Numbered from the stretch's first letter, positions 518-8,582 are shown. The stretch is 34,863 bases of DNA from an uncultured Gammaproteobacteria bacterium (GCA_964597205.1 CAZQXM010000005.1:1-34863), one strand, 5' to 3'. Notes: a model not told the origin generated them from the sequence alone. Made by a program: numbers and translations.

Positions 518-588
518 GTCATCCTGAGCACAGCGAAGGATCTCTAGATAGCGCACGGTGATCCTTCGCACTTCGTGCTCAGGATGAC
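518..588. repeat. Palindromic repeat family A, full copy (two inverted arms)
   Basis: Arm GTCATCCTGAGCACAGCGAAGGATC (518-542) and inverted arm GATCCTTCGCACTTCGTGCTCAGGATGAC (560-588). Related copies at 10369, 23941-24002 and 24429. Confidence 0.9.
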
Positions 589-613
589 AAGTACTACATA
601 TATAATATTGATT

Positions 614-2770
614 GTGGCGAAACTACGAATCCCTGATATCAAATTACCAGGACTAAAATCAGGCAATTTCAAATCTTCAAAATTACGCATAGTGTACGCG
701 GCAGTTGCTGCTCTCGCGGTTGCCTTCGCTGTATATTTTTATACTGATATTTCTAGCAGTGGACCAAGAGTAAGTGATGCTGAATTTAAAGCACTTGAAG
801 CCAAAATTCGCACAGCTTATACTCTAGCTAAAACTGACGCTAAATTAGGTACAAGTCAATTAGATAGTTTTAGTGGCTTGCCAACTAAACTTGAGAATAG
901 ACGTAATGTCTTGCTCGCTGCCATCTATGAAAAAATGGGTGAAGAAGCTTTAGCCTTCCATTATTACTACCTTATAGATAGAGATTATTTGCCGCGTTTC
1001 GCTAGTTACAAGCTCGCTAAGATGGCAGAGCGCATCGGGCTTGAACGCCTGGCGACAGAAATCTACGAAAATCTAGCGCAGAAATTCTCTAAGGACCCGC
1101 GTTATAGCTACGAACTGGCTAAATCATATTTACGCCAAAACGCAGTCGAAAAGGCGCGCGACAAGTTTATGGCAGTGCAGGCTAGTGCTCCCGAGTCTGA
1201 TTTTGCTATTGGTTCTAATTACTATTTAGCGAATCTTTGTGGTGCTGATGATAGAGAATGCAAGATAGCTTATCTGCGTAACTACTTAGTTAAAAGTCCT
1301 ATGGGAAATTTAGCTAGTTTAGTCGCCGATGAAGTTGCGGGCATGACTGATGCCGAGCGTAAACAATTTGCAGACTTGCATAAAGAACTGGGGCTAAGTT
1401 ATTACAGTCATGGTGATTACAGTAAAGCCCTAAGTTATTTCAACGCCAATGGCTCACCATTACTAGAACACGCTACCGCTCTTGCTAAGGCTGGCAAAAG
1501 ACAAGAAGCACTAGCGCTACTTTATAGACGTATACCAGGCGAGGCTAATGATGAAGTTGCTAAGAATGCTATTGAGTATCTCTTAGGTCTCAGTTCAGAA
1601 ACAGCAAGCATAAATCAGCTGCGTACTCTTGCCCCACGCATGCAGAAACATCGCGATAAAGTCTTGTGGCATATCGCTGAACTCTCCAAAATCAAAGAGG
1701 ATTATCAAGCTATTTACGAGGGCTATCCTGATAGTTTCTACGCTCCAGAGAGCATGGCGACTGTGTTCTGGAAAGAGTATAAGCGCGGAGCTAATCATAA
1801 TGCTCTGGCTATAGCTAAGCAACATTGGGAAAGATATCCAGAGTCTAAATCTCATGCTTTCGTCGCGTTTTGGGCAGCTAAACTCTGGCAGCAGCAGGGT
1901 GATAACAATATGGCGAATGCTACTTTGCAAAATATCATTGAAGAACACCCGCTTGATTACTATCGTTTCAGGGCTGAGCAAGTTCTTGCTAAGAAGAATA
2001 AATGGTATCTACTACCGGGAGTTAACGAGTTTAGCTCTTACCCTAATTGGCGTTGGCCAGATATAGCTACTGAAGATGAGTTGCAAGAACGTTACGGTAA
2101 TGAAGTTGCTGAATTAATTGCGATTGAACAATATAGTGCTTTATTAGATTCTGACGGTGAAGCTAATCAATACAAGCTCGATGAGAATCTCAAGATGTGG
2201 TTATATGCTCAGGCTGGCGACACTTATTCAGCTATCAAAACCGGACATATGGCGGTAGAACATATGAAGGGTAATATCGATGTTAGCGATAAGAGGTTAT
2301 TCTTCGCTTACCCACTACCATACGCAGATTTAATCGCTGATGAAGCTGGTAAGCGTCGCTTAGTAGATCCAATGCTGGCACAAGCTTTGATCAAACAAGA
2401 GTCTCACTATAGACCTGACATCAACAGTAAAGCTGGAGCAGTAGGTTTAATGCAAGTGATGCCGTTTACAGCGCGTGATCTAGCACGCAGATTAAGTATC
2501 AGTTCACCAGATATTAATGCACTTAAAGACCCGGCAATTAATATCAAGCTTGGTATTAGATATATGGAGGATGTGTTCGAGAGATTTTCTAACAATATGG
2601 TTTGCGCCGTCGCTTCATACAATGCTGGACCAACAGCCGTAGCTCAATGGATGAATAAAGGTGCTACTGATATGGATTTATTTATCGAAGATATTCCATA
2701 CAGCGAAACTCGCAATTACGTCAAAAAGGTTCTAGCCAACTATTGGACCTACAAAAAACTATATGCTTGA
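614..2770 (+). CDS. slt: TPR-containing soluble lytic transglycosylase (Slt70-like) with N-terminal membrane anchor
   Basis: SLT motifs IKQES, AGAVGLMQVMP, ASYNAGP and ETRNYVKKV, with a helical TPR-like body. Start moved to GTG 614 because the ORF-track start (575) lies inside the repeat and TATAAT sits at 601-606. Confidence 0.9.
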   Translation: MAKLRIPDIKLPGLKSGNFKSSKLRIVYAAVAALAVAFAVYFYTDISSSGPRVSDAEFKALEAKIRTAYTLAKTDAKLGTSQLDSFSGLPTKLENRRNVLLAAIYEKMGEEALAFHYYYLIDRDYLPRFASYKLAKMAERIGLERLATEIYENLAQKFSKDPRYSYELAKSYLRQNAVEKARDKFMAVQASAPESDFAIGSNYYLANLCGADDRECKIAYLRNYLVKSPMGNLASLVADEVAGMTDAERKQFADLHKELGLSYYSHGDYSKALSYFNANGSPLLEHATALAKAGKRQEALALLYRRIPGEANDEVAKNAIEYLLGLSSETASINQLRTLAPRMQKHRDKVLWHIAELSKIKEDYQAIYEGYPDSFYAPESMATVFWKEYKRGANHNALAIAKQHWERYPESKSHAFVAFWAAKLWQQQGDNNMANATLQNIIEEHPLDYYRFRAEQVLAKKNKWYLLPGVNEFSSYPNWRWPDIATEDELQERYGNEVAELIAIEQYSALLDSDGEANQYKLDENLKMWLYAQAGDTYSAIKTGHMAVEHMKGNIDVSDKRLFFAYPLPYADLIADEAGKRRLVDPMLAQALIKQESHYRPDINSKAGAVGLMQVMPFTARDLARRLSISSPDINALKDPAINIKLGIRYMEDVFERFSNNMVCAVASYNAGPTAVAQWMNKGATDMDLFIEDIPYSETRNYVKKVLANYWTYKKLYA

Positions 2771-4337
2771 TCGCAGACGTTTTCTTAAATTATTAGGAAT
2801 CGGCTCTATGGGTCTTGGTTTAAGTTCTTGTAATCTAAAGCCTTTGCCGCCTTTAATAAAACCTAATCCAGAACTAGGTTTTGAGCCCATAGCTGCAAGC
2901 TTAAGAGACGAGGTGGTTTTGCCGCGTGGATTTAGTTATCGTATAGTACGCAGCTGGCAAGATAGCATTGGCACCGATAAAAAATTTGGGTTCAATAACG
3001 ACTTCACTTGTTTTTTCCCTTTAGAAAAATCTGATGAGGCCTTATTATGGGTGAACCACGAATCAGTAGATCCTAAATATATTCCAGATATAGAAGAACA
3101 GCGCCGTAGTGTTGGTGGATCTATTATTAAAATTAAACGTAATGCTGATGGCGAGTGGATTTATGATCATAGCGACGAAACTAGTTATAATCGCCGCATC
3201 GATGCTAATAGTCCTGTTGAATTCACAGGTCCTCTTCGCTTCCGTGAAGAAGTTAAAGGCACGCTAGCGAATTGTAGCGGTGGACGCACGCCATGGGGTA
3301 CTGTACTCACTTGCGAAGAGAATTTTCATGACTTCAACGAAAAGTATAAATGGAAGAATTTTAAACGCAAACACTATGGCTGGGTAACTGAGATTAACCC
3401 TTACAATCCTAAATTCACCCCACGCAAACATAGTCTATTAGGGCGTTTTGCTCACGAGAATGCCGCTATCACCATCTCACGCAACGATAAGGTTGTGATT
3501 TATATGGGTGATGATAAAGAGAATGAACATATTTATAAATTCGTTTCTGCACGTAGCTTCACTAAACCACATAGCAAAATTAAGCTGCACGAGTACAGCG
3601 ATATAGTTGATGGCTTTAGCAACTTACTCTCTGAAGGTCAGCTTTATGTAGCTAGATTCTATGATGCCTCTAATGGAGAAACTATTAGCCCAAGCTTAGA
3701 TCCTAGCGAGCAAGGTGTCGGCGAATGGCTGCCCATCAGTCGCGAAGATAAACGTATCGCGCGCCGCTATCGCAATGATTCCGAGATGTTAATTCATACT
3801 CGCGAATCAGCTAAACTCATAGATGCTAGTGCGCTAGATAGACCAGAAGATCTAGAAGTCAGTCCTCATGATGGTTCCATCTATGTCTCGCTCACTAAAA
3901 ATCTTAGTCGCGCTAATACTTTTGGTTCGATAGTTCGCTTGCTAGAAGATGGTAATAACCATGAGGCTCTAAAATTTACTTATAATAATTTTGTAGTTGG
4001 CTCTATTGATTCAGGTTTTGCTTGTCCGGATAATTTAGCTTTCGATGGGCTTGGTAATCTTTGGGTGACCACAGACGCGTCTCCAGAATTTATGCTGCCG
4101 CATCAACGTCAGCTCTATGGTAATAATGGTCTTTATGTTATTGCACTAAGTGGTGAACAAGCTGGAATTCCTAGGCGCTTCGCATCAGCACCAATAGGTG
4201 CTGAACTTACTGGACCATGGTTTAGTGATGATGGACGGACACTGTTCTTATCGGTGCAGCACCCTAGTGGAACCTGGCCGCGATCCAAAGAGCATAAGTA
4301 TCCGAGACCTTCAGTGATAAGTATCAAGCTTAGATAA
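2763..4337 (+). CDS. phoX: PhoX-family alkaline phosphatase (DUF839), Tat-exported lipoprotein
   Basis: RRRFLK twin-arginine signal and LSSC lipobox. Motifs WVNHE, NCSGGRTPWGTVLTCEEN, GRFAHE, DRPED, CPDN, AELTGP and SVQHP. Confidence 0.92.
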   Translation: MLDRRRFLKLLGIGSMGLGLSSCNLKPLPPLIKPNPELGFEPIAASLRDEVVLPRGFSYRIVRSWQDSIGTDKKFGFNNDFTCFFPLEKSDEALLWVNHESVDPKYIPDIEEQRRSVGGSIIKIKRNADGEWIYDHSDETSYNRRIDANSPVEFTGPLRFREEVKGTLANCSGGRTPWGTVLTCEENFHDFNEKYKWKNFKRKHYGWVTEINPYNPKFTPRKHSLLGRFAHENAAITISRNDKVVIYMGDDKENEHIYKFVSARSFTKPHSKIKLHEYSDIVDGFSNLLSEGQLYVARFYDASNGETISPSLDPSEQGVGEWLPISREDKRIARRYRNDSEMLIHTRESAKLIDASALDRPEDLEVSPHDGSIYVSLTKNLSRANTFGSIVRLLEDGNNHEALKFTYNNFVVGSIDSGFACPDNLAFDGLGNLWVTTDASPEFMLPHQRQLYGNNGLYVIALSGEQAGIPRRFASAPIGAELTGPWFSDDGRTLFLSVQHPSGTWPRSKEHKYPRPSVISIKLR

Positions 4338-4357
4338 GATGTGTTAAGATAAGTTCT

Positions 4358-5221
4358 GTGTATAACAGTGCGTTAGTTTCACAGGCCCGTACAGGGCAAC
4401 CACATAGTTTTGGTCTAGCCGTCGCTGCAGATGTTTCCGGACGAAGAATTGTCAGTTTTAGAAATGAACTTGCAGGCTCCCACACAGCTCTCTTAAGGAA
4501 TATTTGTAAACTACTAGGCGTTAAGAATTGTCTAACAGAAGAACAAGTTGAAGCTGTTAGTAAATTTGATGTGGGTCAGAAACGAAACTGGACAAAAGTA
4601 GTCAATGCTACATATTTAGAATTAAGCAAAGTTGAGAAAGAACTTACAAGCAACCCAACAAGAAGAACTCTTGCAGTTACTCGTGTTCAAGAAAGATTTA
4701 GAAAAGCAATTAAGCTTATATCAGGACGCTATAGTCATTGCTCCTCAGCACCAAAACTACTAGCAATACCTTTAATGCCTAAGAAGGTAAAAGCAATCAA
4801 AACAGGTAAAAAAGTCAAAGAAGATAAAGATGATATCGCCATGTGTGATGTGACCGCTACAGGAAGCACAGGATGGTTTTTCTTAGATCACTTAGTAAAA
4901 TACTTTCGGGATGATACTTTAGTTGATCATTTGCATAAAAGCCTAAAAGAACAAGTGAAAGTACCAAGATTTCTTATCGCATTATTGAAAAAATTCTTTT
5001 TTCAAGATGAGAAACCAAAATTTGTAAAACTAGAAGTCACTAGACTAGGTAGTAAAAAGTTAATTAACCAGTTTCTTAAAAAAGCAACAAATTACATAGA
5101 TATCTATAAAATACATCGTGGAAATAAAACAGCCAGAGAATATGCTATGTCTAAGCTTCACGATGAGCTAAGATCCAAGTTTCTTATCTTGAAACCAGCA
5201 AGATCTAAGCCAAAACTGTGA
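4358..5221 (+). CDS. Hypothetical Lys/Arg-rich basic protein
   Basis: 287-aa ORF filling the phoX-fliP gap. Extended -10 (TGtTAAGAT, 4342-4350) lies 7 nt before the GTG. No recognisable motif. Confidence 0.7.
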   Translation: MYNSALVSQARTGQPHSFGLAVAADVSGRRIVSFRNELAGSHTALLRNICKLLGVKNCLTEEQVEAVSKFDVGQKRNWTKVVNATYLELSKVEKELTSNPTRRTLAVTRVQERFRKAIKLISGRYSHCSSAPKLLAIPLMPKKVKAIKTGKKVKEDKDDIAMCDVTATGSTGWFFLDHLVKYFRDDTLVDHLHKSLKEQVKVPRFLIALLKKFFFQDEKPKFVKLEVTRLGSKKLINQFLKKATNYIDIYKIHRGNKTAREYAMSKLHDELRSKFLILKPARSKPKL

Positions 5222-5255
5222 ATAAAGCTATTAGCGTCTATATAAAACGCTAGCT

Positions 5256-5909
5256 ATGGAAGATCTTAGTAGACTACTTCCTGATTTAGAACCGAGCTTA
5301 CAGATTGTAGGCCTGCTTTTCCTTTTAAGTTTTATACCTATCATCGTAGTGTCGATGACACCTTTCTTACGTATCATCATGGTGATGTCATTAATCAGGC
5401 AAGCACTAGGTACTCAGAACTCGCCACCCAACATGGTTTTAATAGGTTTAGCTTTGGTGCTTACTACTTATGTCCTGGGACCAGAAGTCGATATTATTAA
5501 TAAAACTGCAATAGTACCGCTGGCTAATAATCAAATCGCTTTACCTGAAGCACTGTCCCGTACTTACGAACCTTTAAAGCAACATATGCTACGCAACGTT
5601 GATAGTAAAGATCTTAAGTTCTTTTATAAACTCAGCCGTGAGGAACTACCTAAAAAACCGGTTGATGTCAAGACTAGAGAGCTATCAGCTGCCTATTTAT
5701 TAGGTGAAATGCGCAAAGCTTTCCAGATTGGATTTTTAGTTTTCATTCCCTTCTTGGTGATTGACCTAATCGTTGCTAATATACTCTTAGCGCTGGGTAT
5801 GATAATGCTCTCGCCAACTATTGTGTCGTTGCCGTTTAAGATTATGATCTTCGTAGCGATTGATGGTTGGGATTTAATTATCAAGGGTCTTGCTCAGAGC
5901 TTTAATTAA
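5256..5909 (+). CDS. fliP: Type III export gate protein FliP/SctR
   Basis: TPFLRI, RQALGTQNSPPNMVL, AFQIGFLVFIPFLVIDL and LPFK..F...DGW. 217 aa with no N-terminal signal peptide. Confidence 0.93.
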   Translation: MEDLSRLLPDLEPSLQIVGLLFLLSFIPIIVVSMTPFLRIIMVMSLIRQALGTQNSPPNMVLIGLALVLTTYVLGPEVDIINKTAIVPLANNQIALPEALSRTYEPLKQHMLRNVDSKDLKFFYKLSREELPKKPVDVKTRELSAAYLLGEMRKAFQIGFLVFIPFLVIDLIVANILLALGMIMLSPTIVSLPFKIMIFVAIDGWDLIIKGLAQSFN

Positions 5910-5911
5910 AA

Positions 5912-6892
5912 ATGGATTGGATGCCTCAAGCAATTCGAGACGGTATTTTTACCGTGCTCTTTATTTCTGGACCTTTGGTCTTGCTTGCTGCTGCCTTGGG
6001 ATTAGTAATCGGTATTATTCAAGCAGCAACACAAGTGCAAGAACAGACATTGGGTTCTGCGGTAAAAATCCTTGGAGTATTTTTAGCGTTGATTATTTTT
6101 GGATTCTATATGTTCCAATACCTCAAACAGTACGCAACGCAAACTATTAATCGCGCCTTTAATTTAGTGCCCTCACTCTCTTCACACCCACTACCACCGA
6201 AAAAATTATTCAAACAACCAATCAAGAGTAGCGAAGAGACTGATCATCCGCTCTTCTCACCAGAAGAACTGGCTGAAACTGCACCAGCCTCTGGCGGCGG
6301 TCGCGGAGCTGGTGCCGATAATAAAGCTGCTGTTCTAGAAGAACCAGAAGTGGTAGAGGTAGTGCCGCCACCGAGTACAGACAAATTACCAGAGATTAAT
6401 TACCTCACCAGACCTCCAAGCGGTATTAAAGAAGCTATATTCCAAACCCTCACTCCAGAAAGCACAGAAGAAACTGAGCAAGAACCAGAACGCGAAGAGC
6501 CACCAGTTCAAGAAGCTACTACTAGACCAGCTGCGACACCAGTAAGCAGACCTGCCGCAACAAGACCAAGTCAAACTCAACAAGCTACAACAAGACCAGC
6601 TCAACAGCAAACTGCGCCAAAAGCAGCAGTTCAACAAACTCCTGTTACTAGACCAACTACCACTCAGCAAACTCGACCAGCTACAACAAGAGCAGCAGCA
6701 AGACCTGCAGCTAGGCCAGCTCCACGTCCGCAAGCGCCAGCACCGGTAGCAGTAGAACCAGTACCAGTAGCAAGAACCGAAGCTCCTACACGCAACGCTG
6801 ATCTAGAAGCTAGTCGTAATAGCCGCCGTGCAGCACTAGCACGTATTAAATCATCTATTAATGAAGTAGAAGGAGCAGCTGCGGCTGAGTAG
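5912..6892 (+). CDS. fliQ: Type III export gate protein FliQ/SctS with ~240-aa low-complexity C-terminal extension
   Basis: The first ~88 aa contain GLVIGIIQAATQVQEQTL. Lies between fliP and fliR. Confidence 0.88.
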   Translation: MDWMPQAIRDGIFTVLFISGPLVLLAAALGLVIGIIQAATQVQEQTLGSAVKILGVFLALIIFGFYMFQYLKQYATQTINRAFNLVPSLSSHPLPPKKLFKQPIKSSEETDHPLFSPEELAETAPASGGGRGAGADNKAAVLEEPEVVEVVPPPSTDKLPEINYLTRPPSGIKEAIFQTLTPESTEETEQEPEREEPPVQEATTRPAATPVSRPAATRPSQTQQATTRPAQQQTAPKAAVQQTPVTRPTTTQQTRPATTRAAARPAARPAPRPQAPAPVAVEPVPVARTEAPTRNADLEASRNSRRAALARIKSSINEVEGAAAAE

Positions 6893-6897
6893 TTAGC

Positions 6898-7680
6898 ATG
6901 GAACTACTTGCAGGATTTTTCAGACAATCAGCACTTAGTTCAGGTACCGAATGGGTAGCAGCAGCAAGCCTAGTTCTGGTAAGAGTTCTAGCCTTCTTAC
7001 ATGAAGCACCAGTATTTGGTCATAAAAATATTTCTACTTTAAGCCGTATTGGTTTTGGCATATTACTAACTATGATACTTATGGCTAGTATCGATATTCC
7101 TAAACCACCAAGCACTGGTTATTATTTACCTTGGGCGATTTTGATAAATGTAATTCTTGGATTATTAATTGGTTTCGTTGCTAAATTAATGTTCGAAACA
7201 ATAGTCGCTGGTGGGGAGATGATGGACTCATCAATGGGCTTCTCATCAGCACAAACTTTCGATCCGCACTCTGGATCACAAACTACCATCATGGGTAAAT
7301 TTATGTCAATGCTCTCGATTGTGGTTTTCTTTTGGGTGCGCGGACCAGAGAGACTAATCGAATCACTACACAAAAGTTTCGGCACAGTGGATATTTACGC
7401 ACCGACATTCACGGTTGATACCCTCAAAATCGTTCATTTAGTAGGTGATATCATCTCCATGGGATTCATCATAGTTAGCCCAATAGTCTTAACCATCATG
7501 GTGCTAGATATAGTGCTGGGCTTGATTTCTCGGGCTTCTCCGCAGATCAATGCCTTCCAGATCAGTTTTACTATTAAGCCTAGCGTTGGAGCTATCGTGT
7601 TCTTGCTGATTATGCCGTTATTCTTTATGGGACTAACTAATTTCTTCGGTAATGCCGGAAGATTAATAGGATTCAATTAG
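6898..7680 (+). CDS. fliR: Type III export gate protein FliR/SctT
   Basis: Hydrophobic 260-aa protein with R...F...APVFG, GEMMDSSMGFSSAQTFDP and GLISRASPQINAF. Confidence 0.92.
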   Translation: MELLAGFFRQSALSSGTEWVAAASLVLVRVLAFLHEAPVFGHKNISTLSRIGFGILLTMILMASIDIPKPPSTGYYLPWAILINVILGLLIGFVAKLMFETIVAGGEMMDSSMGFSSAQTFDPHSGSQTTIMGKFMSMLSIVVFFWVRGPERLIESLHKSFGTVDIYAPTFTVDTLKIVHLVGDIISMGFIIVSPIVLTIMVLDIVLGLISRASPQINAFQISFTIKPSVGAIVFLLIMPLFFMGLTNFFGNAGRLIGFN

Positions 7681-8582
7681 TGCCAACACTAATCACTAGG
7701 GCCAAATTAATATTGCTAGCAATACTGCTAGTACTTAGTTGCGCGCCATCTACAAAAGCTGAAGAAGAAAAAAAAGAAACCTTATTAGTGGTCGGTGTGG
7801 GCTACAACCAACTCAGTCCAGCAACCCGTCAAAGTATGGGACCAGTAAATGTTGTTGAAATCGAATTCACTCCTCAATGGCAGCGATACATTGATCAAAG
7901 TGATGCCGATAAAGTTATATTAAGACACCCTAGTGGTTACACAGCTCTCTATCATAAGGATGGGACCTTCTTGCGTGATTTAGGGACTAGTTCTGCTGCT
8001 TATGCCTATCCTTATACAGTACAAGGTACTAACACGCGACCTCCAGCTGAGGCTATAACTTCAACTCCAGACTGGCATCAAGTGGGTTACGCCACTGGTG
8101 GTCTAACTGATCCTTACAGACAATATGCTCCACCAGCATCTAAACGTAATTATCAATCACTATCACCAGGCTGGGGATATAATCGCGAGAAAGCAGCACC
8201 TAGTCGCAAAGATACTTTCTTTCAATTCCTGAGCTTCTTTCCAATAGATACAGTTACACCATTTAATTATCCTGGTACTTTTGACTCTGTCGGTGTGCCA
8301 ACTGCTTACGCACTGGGTTCTATACCGCATATCGGCGGCATGGCACTAGAGATGCGCGAAGCTAAAAAACAACGTGAACTCTATGATGCTAACGCAGCTG
8401 CTATTCCAGAACATGTAGAGTTCCCAGTACAGATGTACAACTCTCAAGACCCTAATAATCCTTTAACTCAGGATCCTAATTTTATTCGTATGTCACCAAT
8501 GCCGCAAGGGTTTGACATGAAGTATCCTAATTTTCAGCAGCAGGCAAATTACTATGCTCAATATGGCAGACCAAGTCCCTAA
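7680..8582 (+). CDS. Hypothetical exported protein, Pro/Gln/Tyr-rich, translationally coupled to fliR
   Basis: TAGTG stop/start overlap at 7680. Basic plus hydrophobic signal peptide ending VLSCAPSTKA. Confidence 0.75.
   Translation: MPTLITRAKLILLAILLVLSCAPSTKAEEEKKETLLVVGVGYNQLSPATRQSMGPVNVVEIEFTPQWQRYIDQSDADKVILRHPSGYTALYHKDGTFLRDLGTSSAAYAYPYTVQGTNTRPPAEAITSTPDWHQVGYATGGLTDPYRQYAPPASKRNYQSLSPGWGYNREKAAPSRKDTFFQFLSFFPIDTVTPFNYPGTFDSVGVPTAYALGSIPHIGGMALEMREAKKQRELYDANAAAIPEHVEFPVQMYNSQDPNNPLTQDPNFIRMSPMPQGFDMKYPNFQQQANYYAQYGRPSP

Follow-up and report, generated by a model that had tools for sequence, protein, structure and literature searches.

The window analysed here is a 34,863-nucleotide stretch of DNA, contig C5 of a metagenome-assembled genome (MAG, G000; 1.8 Mb in 253 contigs, 92% complete, 5.4% contaminated). 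Positions 5256 to 8582 encode the FliP, FliQ and FliR subunits of a type III protein export gate and a downstream protein of no known family, all on the plus strand. We refer to this gate and its counterparts in related genomes as type A, and to the canonical flagellar gate of the same lineage as type B. The gene fliP (5256..5909) encodes the 217-amino-acid (aa) pore subunit of the gate. Its Pfam FliP match (230 bits) covers residues 20-212 and, because it begins at residue 20, leaves no room for an N-terminal signal-peptide extension. The product of fliQ (5912..6892, 326 aa) consists of a FliQ hairpin core (about residues 1-88, 5912-6175) and a long tail of 238 aa (6176-6889), with the Bac_export_3 match (69.5 bits) confined to residues 7-75. 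The tail is rich in Pro, Thr, Ala, Gln and Glu (60% of its residues), ends in a short conserved helix-like motif, and is the reason for a local rise in G+C to 0.47. The gene fliR (6898..7680) encodes the 260-aa third gate subunit (Bac_export_1, 177 bits). Its TAG stop and the GTG start of the next open reading frame (ORF), ORF 7680 (orfB, 7680..8582), share one base, reading ..AATTAGTGCC... The orfB product has a Sec-type signal peptide followed by a 270-aa protein rich in Tyr, Pro, Gly and Asn.

Flagellar NCBIfam models outscore the injectisome models for all three gate proteins, although only FliP clears a cut-off. FliP scores 234.8 with fliP (cut-off 217.45) and 185.7 with SctR (below its cut-off of 208.6). 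The best models for FliQ and FliR are fliQ (64.1) and fliR (160.9), but both scores fall below the equivalog cut-offs (88.9 and 168.6), as do those with SctS (54.2, cut-off 76.5) and SctT (124.3, cut-off 163.05). No fliO, flhB, flhA, rod or motor family was found by Pfam in the flanking ORFs or in 27 further ORFs of the window. The other families identified among the scanned ORFs are housekeeping (e.g., PhoX, RNase H, HAD, ThrRS, NadA and SmpB), and the housekeeping genes of the contig occur in the same order as in relatives. An earlier note on this DNA had described a divergent fliPQR without local partners, a flanking gene coupled to fliR, a 217-aa FliP that lacks a signal peptide and reads PPNM, and a FliQ that reads QEQTLGSAVK. 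The ORFs, Pfam matches and sequences (..SPPNM.. in FliP) bear these observations out. The note did not mention the tail of FliQ, and it read the locus as a stand-alone gate with injectisome-like traits, divergent or repurposed and a candidate for a non-flagellar secretion system.

Two gate sets and their partner genes

The closest public FliP loci are labelled Candidatus Melainabacteria, Caenarcaniphilales or Vampirovibrionia. The host is a member of the order Caenarcaniphilales within the Melainabacteria (Vampirovibrionia), a class of non-photosynthetic relatives of cyanobacteria. Its genome encodes flagellar genes outside the window, including four tandem flagellins, FlgK/L-like genes, eight rod/hook-type matches and one match each to FliG_C, MotB_plug and FlgI. 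Three matches each were identified for FlhA, FlhB and FliR, but only one for FliP and one for FliQ. Two members of each triple are strain variants with the same neighbours (FlhA on C53 and C161, 96% identity; FlhB and FliR on C73 and C15, 85% and 78%), so the genome holds two real types of each protein, with 25-37% mutual identity, and also two types of FliF. The window FliR shares 25-26% identity with the type B FliR copies. The duplicated loci comprise EF-Tu, a Na+/H+ exchanger and type B fliR-flhB (C15/C73; 78-85% protein identity), and SecF with type A flhA (C53/C161; 96%) (loci L026, L027, L030 and L031). They look like two related populations binned together rather than gene duplications. 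On C15, ParE/ParD and nucleotidyltransferase/HepT-like toxin-antitoxin pairs flank type B fliR-flhB at a distance of a few kb (L026, 3253-3791 and 11781-12463).

In a genome of the same genus, the neighbours of type B fliPQ correspond to genes at the edges (starts) of contigs C154 and C176 of the window MAG (96% and 66% identity). Because these flanking genes stop at the contig edges, type B fliPQ falls in an assembly gap, and the canonical fliPQ of the window organism was probably lost between C154 and C176.

We compared 30 genomes of the class, including the window genome and 17 other genomes of its family. Two FliP and two FliR were each identified in 15 of these 17, two FliF in 16, and at least two FlhA in all 17. 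The two-set pattern also occurs in one further family of the order and in two other families of the class. Both sets are present in a complete one-contig genome (G021) and in two 20-contig genomes (G007 and G011). Type A FliP is 213-232 aa long, with a Pfam match that starts at residue 17-35; type B FliP is 244-283 aa long, with a 53-84-residue N-terminal extension that includes a hydrophobic stretch. FliQ is 136-326 aa in type A (10 of 10 examined) versus 88-95 aa in type B (6 of 6). Type A fliR follows fliQ in the same operon in nine of ten genomes. The type B genes of the window's family occur as two separate pairs, fliP-fliQ and fliR-flhB, and those of G019 make up a classical fliPQR-flhB-flhA-ycgR operon. 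Type A is a separate paralogous gene set that coexists in the window genome with an ordinary flagellum that has its own gate, and it is conserved across the class.

All ten type A FliQ examined have a conserved ..VP....LPP.. motif right after helix 2, followed by a low-complexity tail of about 50 to 240 residues. In the Caenarcaniphilales, the tail ends in a short conserved motif that is basic and helix-like. A length-restricted database search recovered 98 clusters of FliQ-domain proteins of 179-571 aa; the few NCBI organism labels on these are Melainabacteria, Cyanobacteria, Cyanobacteriota or simply "bacterium". In the part of the report on the Vibrio FliPQR-FlhB structure that deals with FliQ (PMC7064499), the FliQ hairpin is antiparallel to the first hairpin of FlhB, and the loop of FlhB touches the conserved loop of FliQ on the surface that faces the cytoplasm. 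As the hairpin loop faces the cytoplasm, the C-terminus of FliQ and the tail that extends from it would point to the periplasm-facing end of the gate. We considered the tail as a replacement for FliO and rejected the idea: FliO and a long FliQ occur together in G019, G021, G022 and G023.

Ratios of nonsynonymous to synonymous substitution rates (dN/dS; Nei-Gojobori, relative to the same-genus genome) are 0.040 for FliP, 0.044 for FliR, 0.052 for the FliQ core, 0.26 for the FliQ tail and 0.078 for orfB, and 0.094 for the neighbouring PhoX. Full-length type A matches contain no internal stops. Purifying selection on the type A genes is strong (dN/dS about 0.04), and the low ratios and the lack of internal stops argue against a decaying relic.

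In other orders, type A fliP is preceded by genes for a FliN-domain protein of about 400 aa and FliO (PF04347), and the cluster reads FliN-like-FliO-FliP-FliQ(long)-FliR; the FliO gene lies directly upstream of fliP in G019, G021, G022 and G023. A second cluster in G019 encodes, in order, two FlgF/G-like proteins, an FlgB-like protein, FlgC, an SLT transglycosylase, FliE, FliF, a 317-aa ORF with a weak FliG_M match, FliH, FlhA, FliI, FliJ and an FlgE/F/G-like protein. Parts of this order recur in G021, G022 and G024. In the window genome, tblastn located the closer homologues of FlhA on C53, FliE-FliF-FliH on C22, FliI on C32, FlgB-FlgC on C39, two FlgF/G-like proteins on C19 and one on C13, and the FliN-like protein on C29. 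These, together with FliPQR in the window, an FlhB on C103 and a reduced FliG on C22, make up the type A set of this genome. Five genomes that have type A only encode a single FlhB each, to which the FlhB on C103 shows 35-54% identity; the other FlhB reaches 32-36%. The gate is not stand-alone, as the earlier note had it: its partner genes are scattered on other contigs.

The reduced FliG is encoded by a conserved ORF of 120-129 aa that, in the window's family, occupies the canonical fliG position between fliF and fliH and has no FliG_C match (mini-FliG). The best PDB match of its profile is FliG (3hjl_A), although this is marginal (E=0.0014), and 5 of the 10 matches listed are FliG. The alignment covers FliG residues 13-100 and again 131-247. 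The ring gene of type A encodes a full-length FliF. Six copies were scanned; they range from 536 to 629 aa, and five of them have a YscJ_FliF_C match. Type A FliH is much longer in the window's family (446 aa in G011 and 676 aa in G007; L104:4914-6944, L105:5876-7216) than in other orders (224-314 aa). ORFs of 376-516 aa that match only the cytoplasmic C-terminal half of FlhA (profile positions ~308-322 to 653-656) occur in G022 (C6:10760-11788), G028 (C15), G019 (C7) and G025 (C293). Two of these four genomes have type A only. The ORFs may encode a free-standing FlhA-C-like protein.

Five genomes of the sample encode type A alone: G022 and G028 (both 99% complete), G024 (98%), G029 (92%) and G023 (91%). 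Searches of these MAGs with Pfam models gave 0/5 matches each for FliG_C, Flagellin_N, MotB_plug and FlgI. Among the 23 two-set genomes, Flagellin_N and MotB_plug were matched in all, FliG_C in 22 and FlgI in 22 (one only a fragment); FliG_C, MotB_plug and FlgI are almost always single-copy. One member of the window's family (G013) gave 34 flagellin-N matches, far above the 3-13 of its relatives. Flg_bb_rod matches number 4, 3, 2, 0 and 0 in the five type-A-only genomes versus 5-9 per two-set genome. In a phylum-wide sample, exactly one FliP match was found in 50 of 50 genomes of family f6 (99% complete). These FliP have open frames of 212-228 aa in all but one case (254 aa) and 42-46% identity to the window FliP. 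A type B FliP is detectable at the threshold of this search, as type B matches the window FliP at 42% identity with E-values of 1e-47 to 4e-48. Type A is the only set kept in lineages where no flagellin, stator, full FliG or P ring was found.

Phylogeny and comparison with known type III machines

Maximum-likelihood trees (IQ-TREE, LG+C20 PMSF; support values in brackets) place type A outside the ordinary flagellar clade. In a FliP tree of 38 rows, five SctR references form a clade (100/99), and 16 FliP of other phyla (Pseudomonadota, Bdellovibrionota, Myxococcota, Nitrospirota, Bacillota and Thermotogota) group with six type B sequences (100/98); type A lies outside in two groups. Addition of seven FliP from the phylum's other classes (45 rows) unites type A (87/54), and the remainder forms a clade (98/91). 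The seven come from 6 of 10 other-class loci; L129, L130 and L132 gave no FliP row and L137 gave FliQ only. The second copy of the other classes ("b", 100/99) is the first branch of the remainder clade, and their first copy ("a") is sister to type B (83/81). The FlhA tree (22 rows, 693 columns) was built without X_Myxococcota_C16, a wrong ORF with a branch length of 10. Here, type A is monophyletic (100/100), ordinary and type B FlhA form a clade (95/97), and the clade formed by these groups (98/94) leaves out all four SctV references as well as two Myxococcota copies. An approximately unbiased (AU) test does not reject a single clade of type A and "b" FliP (p 0.074). Type A appears to be a distinct lineage outside both the ordinary flagellar and the injectisome clades in the FliP and FlhA trees, although AU tests give mixed answers and the depth of the split is not secure. 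Fast evolution could be pulling type A toward the long Sct branch.

Two FliPQR sets, each with a FliQ of normal length, are also present in other classes of the phylum that have a higher G+C content (L131-L138; G037, G048, G069, G078 and G141). One set is sister to type B, and the other, "b", takes a position between type A and ordinary FliP; G048 carries the "b" kind alone. Myxococcota loci (L064, L069, L071, L120 and L121) were also compared. Their FliP-like proteins, which are 217-218 aa long and lack an N-terminal extension, nest within the ordinary FliP clade, and two FlhA-like proteins from one of these genomes are placed among the SctV references, outside the clade of flagellar FlhA.

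The earlier note had ascribed injectisome-like traits to the gate, and there are real resemblances to the injectisome gates SctRSTUV (Yersinia Ysc, Shigella Mxi-Spa, Aeromonas Asc, plant-pathogen Hrc and rhizobial Rhc). These are likewise type III gates without a flagellar motor or filament, and SctR, like the window FliP, is short (216-217 aa), lacks a signal peptide and has Met after PPN in three of five references. PPN is followed by Met or Leu in four of the five (the fifth reads PSNM) and also in type A of the window's subgroup. Ordinary FliP, where the motif was found, reads PPNQ or PSNQ in 13 of 14 cases from other phyla (the exception, from Sinorhizobium, is PSNM), as does type B in both rows where the motif was found. 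The FliQ loop without Pro-Lys (..GSAVK) is restricted to the f1/f2/f8 subgroup of type A. Family f7 is different again, and ..PK is retained in type A of f3, f5 and f6 and in all type B. These motif traits are real but do not make type A an injectisome gate. The SctR clade excludes type A, none of the four SctV references groups with type A FlhA, and the window proteins fall below the SctR, SctS and SctT cut-offs. In sequence searches, annotated FliP (37.6-51% identity) all rank above all SctR (30-42%), except for one SctR row (plasmid search). The partners found are rod proteins, FliE, FliF and FliO rather than SctD/J, needle or secretin; secretin and needle families were not searched for.

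Type A shares more with the canonical flagellar gate. The Salmonella and Vibrio FliPQR-FlhBA structures (PMC7064499) contain the same five protein families, hidden Markov models (HMMs) favour the flagellar versions for type A, and its partners are also flagellar (FliE, FliF, FlgB/C, FliH/I/J, and FliO in other orders). In addition, type A FlhA is on the flagellar side of the split from SctV (98/94). However, the trees place type A outside the canonical clade, which unites FliP and FlhA of Pseudomonadota, Bdellovibrionota, Myxococcota, Nitrospirota, Bacillota, Thermotogota, Actinomycetota and Thermomicrobiota with type B from the lineage itself. Type A also differs in its FliP without a signal-peptide extension, its long disordered FliQ tail and its reduced FliG, and the genomes that have it alone gave no match to filament, stator or P-ring genes.

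Flagellar basal bodies without filaments are known from the aphid symbiont Buchnera, where basal-body and export genes are kept without flagellin and a role in protein export has been proposed. That is a reduced canonical flagellum of a tiny genome, whereas type A would be an old, separate paralogue beside a complete flagellum. Partial sets have been described within the Melainabacteria. In the text of Di Rienzi 2013 (PMC3787301), complete flagellar sets are reported for three genomes and a reduced set for MEL.A1, which lacks the filament, cap and junction as well as both the L ring and the P ring, a pattern read there as genome reduction. Among the 13 shared flagellar genes listed there, one cluster runs flgG-flgG-flgC-fliF-fliH-flhA-fliI-flgE, flhA appears a second time, and one gene separates fliP-fliQ from fliR. 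The reduction reading recurs in a 2018 termite-gut study, in the part that discusses this work. As far as their accessible text goes, the partial sets of non-motile Gastranaerophilales (PMC3787301; Soo 2014, PMC4040986; bioRxiv 10.64898/2026.04.24.720558) comprise the same genes as type A. These papers treat the retained set as the remains of one flagellum, whereas here it is a divergent paralogous set. In the accessible text of published accounts of the class we found no statement of two paralogous sets or of a divergent retained set, although supplementary tables or figures may list duplicates. The same portions of the literature on Melainabacteria, Vampirovibrionia and Gastranaerophilales yielded no earlier description of a type III system in the class.

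Proposed function and origin of the type A apparatus

On balance we think it probable that the gate encoded by the window fliPQR belongs to a second type III apparatus, derived from the flagellum and apparently motor-less and filament-less, that exists beside a true flagellum. Its function is probably something other than swimming; it may secrete proteins or build only a rod. The predicted machine would consist of an MS ring, export gate, ATPase complex and short rod, would export its own rod-type subunits and probably further substrates, and would neither rotate nor carry a filament. The long FliQ tails (four copies per gate, if the Salmonella stoichiometry applies) would emerge at the periplasm-facing end of the gate, and may tether or space it inside the ring. 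The ORF 7680 product would be exported by Sec and co-translated with FliR, and is possibly a periplasmic accessory specific to Caenarcaniphilales. Of the earlier proposal of a repurposed, non-swimming gate, the divergent gate, distinct from that of the swimming flagellum, stands (relatives have a second, canonical fliPQ and fliR-flhB), whereas the injectisome-like and stand-alone parts do not: flagellar HMMs score higher, SctR and SctV references group apart, and the partners are flagellar and encoded elsewhere.

The main alternative is that type A is the gate of a second motile flagellum, of the polar plus lateral kind, that shares rotor, stator, hook and filament with the other set. Both sets do occur together in all flagellated members sampled, flagellin genes are numerous (3-34 matches per genome), and type A keeps rod proteins, a FliN-like protein, FliH and FliI. 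Dual polar and lateral systems comprise two complete sets, each with motor, hook and filament genes of its own, however, and here FliG_C, MotB_plug and FlgI are single-copy in nearly all two-set genomes. Type A is also intact where these and flagellin are unmatched (0/5), is the only FliP type in the 50 f6 genomes, and in the window's family has a FliG-like protein cut to 120 aa. We therefore regard a second swimming organelle as rather unlikely. Still less plausible is the simplest view, that the window encodes the ordinary gate of a single swimming flagellum in a genome that just scatters its flagellar genes. Its appeal is that all three proteins match flagellar models best, with FliP above the equivalog cut-off, that flagellin, rod, hook-junction, FliG, MotB and FlgI genes are present elsewhere, and that the assembly contains one fliP and one fliQ. 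But a second, canonical fliP-fliQ is present in the same-genus genome and in 15 of 17 family members, with its place here in an assembly gap, two types of FliR, FlhB, FlhA and FliF are already in the window genome (25-37% identity), and the window type lies outside the ordinary clade. The earlier note had named three findings that would speak against its reading: nesting in ordinary flagellar clades, a single copy, and a complete flagellar set elsewhere. They do not all occur together. A complete flagellar set does exist elsewhere in the genome, but the FliP (100/98, 98/91) and FlhA (95/97) trees place type A outside, and a second FliP type is present in the lineage even though the window assembly has only one FliP and FliQ.

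Di Rienzi 2013 and Soo 2014 read the partial sets as ongoing genome reduction and loss of motility, which would make type A a functionless remnant of an ancestral flagellum. This is highly improbable, because all type A reading frames examined are open, dN/dS is 0.04-0.08, the gene is kept in 50 of 50 f6 genomes and the set is kept beside a complete flagellum in four families. Least credible of all is a binning artefact in which two organisms were mixed in one MAG. The 5.4% contamination and the strain variants (C15/C73, 78-85%; C53/C161, 96%) are what such mixing could produce. However, those variants are duplicates within one type rather than an A/B split, both sets occur in the one-contig genome and the two 20-contig genomes, and the housekeeping genes of the window contig are ordered as in relatives.

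Several points weigh against a separate, non-rotating apparatus. The absences in type-A-only genomes come from Pfam models applied to MAGs, which a divergent flagellin, stator or hook would escape; the FliG-like proteins of type A are themselves invisible to FliG_C, so such calls can miss divergent parts. Rod-type matches are few or absent in some of these genomes (no Flg_bb_rod match in G023 and G029), and tblastn found no FliO, FliJ or long FliG-like homologue in the window genome (the FliO queries being two sequences from other orders). Type A could also borrow flagellar parts in the window's own family, where these are present. The dN/dS values derive from two genomes between which dS is 0.76-1.9, near saturation. 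For FlhA, a joint clade of types A and B is not rejected by the AU test (p 0.198), which leaves room for a lineage-specific duplication with fast evolution of type A. A single clade of all FliP of the phylum is rejected (p 0.011), but this grouping was named after inspection of the tree. The taxon sample is small, and does not include Spirochaetota, Aquificota, Chlamydiota or Planctomycetota. The functions proposed for type A are read from gene presence only.

A bolder and more doubtful possibility is that type A represents a third and ancient branch among type III machines, sister to every canonical flagellum in the sample, separate from injectisomes and already present in the ancestor shared by the non-photosynthetic cyanobacterial classes. 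The second FliPQR set ("b") of the phylum's other classes is a possible counterpart, as a joint clade is not rejected by the AU test (p 0.074).

Recognised type III machines fall into two kinds, flagella and injectisomes. If the apparatus is as proposed, strong selection maintains a third version, flagellum-like but apparently with neither motor nor filament, in a whole class of bacteria whose members include common inhabitants of the human and animal gut, even where a normal flagellum is present as well. What has been seen as "partial flagella" in gut Melainabacteria would then be a functional machine and not a remnant, would offer a natural setting for studying what a non-rotating flagellar basal body does, and would provide a deep-branching reference point in the debate on the relationship between flagellum and injectisome. 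Were the third branch also real, type A would be a living rod-building, non-rotating, flagellum-like secretion apparatus, in a form like that proposed either for a flagellar ancestor that preceded motility or for an initial step toward injectisomes. The tailed FliQ and signal-peptide-less FliP provide simple sequence markers for finding type A.

Flanking genes

Neither ORF 7680 nor ORF 4358 (orfA, 4358-5221), a Lys-rich orphan upstream of fliP, has a Pfam or NCBIfam family. The ORF 7680 protein has an N-terminal hydrophobic signal with A-x-A-like sites at its end, and conserved Gly/Tyr/Pro motifs. Among 5.8 billion sequences we found 16 proteins of this kind (the window's own and 15 others), none with a Pfam domain. 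Among 13 relatives' loci, six have a homologue downstream of the type A fliR, four lack it there and three are cut off. It is also downstream of fliR in G007, G011 and G018, with intervening genes in two of these. The earlier note had suggested that ORF 7680 encodes a subunit. The coupling to fliR and the synteny in part of the order favour this, but the gene is confined to the order and the type A machine is class-wide, so the suggestion is a synteny-based guess; from its position and coupling, ORF 7680 may encode an order-specific accessory of type A.

An AlphaFold model of the orfB protein, from an 18-sequence alignment, is poor (mean predicted local distance difference test score 55.7) and confident only at residues 31-100. 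The best match in a fold search of 48,161 PDB representatives is a tRNA-synthetase anticodon-binding domain (Z 6.2, 71 residues, root-mean-square deviation 3.3), which we discounted as generic. Matches to PelC, LpoB and CsgG-complex chains (Z 3.7-5) are generic small alpha/beta matches from which we draw no conclusion, and the ESM Atlas held no usable match. Assignment as a lipoprotein was also rejected: the Cys of the window signal peptide is not conserved in the alignment, and the signal is an ordinary Sec signal.

ORF 4358, which the earlier note had pointed out as a flanking orphan, is absent beside fliP in 13 of 13 relatives' loci and is not part of the type A machine. The database holds two such proteins, the window's own and one at 63% identity; the contig of the latter also carries close homologues of the window FliQ and orfB.

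Further upstream, a gene at 575..2770 (plus strand) encodes a 731-aa protein with TPR repeats and an SLT lytic transglycosylase domain (Pfam SLT, residues 589-695). A TPR-SLT gene of this kind is the usual neighbour in the family, located directly upstream of type A fliP in relatives' loci L033-L036, L043 and L079. In the window, a PhoX gene and ORF 4358 (2763-5221) separate the TPR-SLT gene from fliP. In the same-genus genome PhoX likewise lies in this interval, but ORF 4358 does not. In other orders, the type A clusters contain a separate small SLT gene, for which C11 has the best match in the window genome. A link between the TPR-SLT protein and the type A machine is uncertain. There is no clear Shine-Dalgarno sequence visible at the fliP start, and a short inverted repeat, AGCGT ... 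ACGCT (5233-5251), is located just 5' of it.

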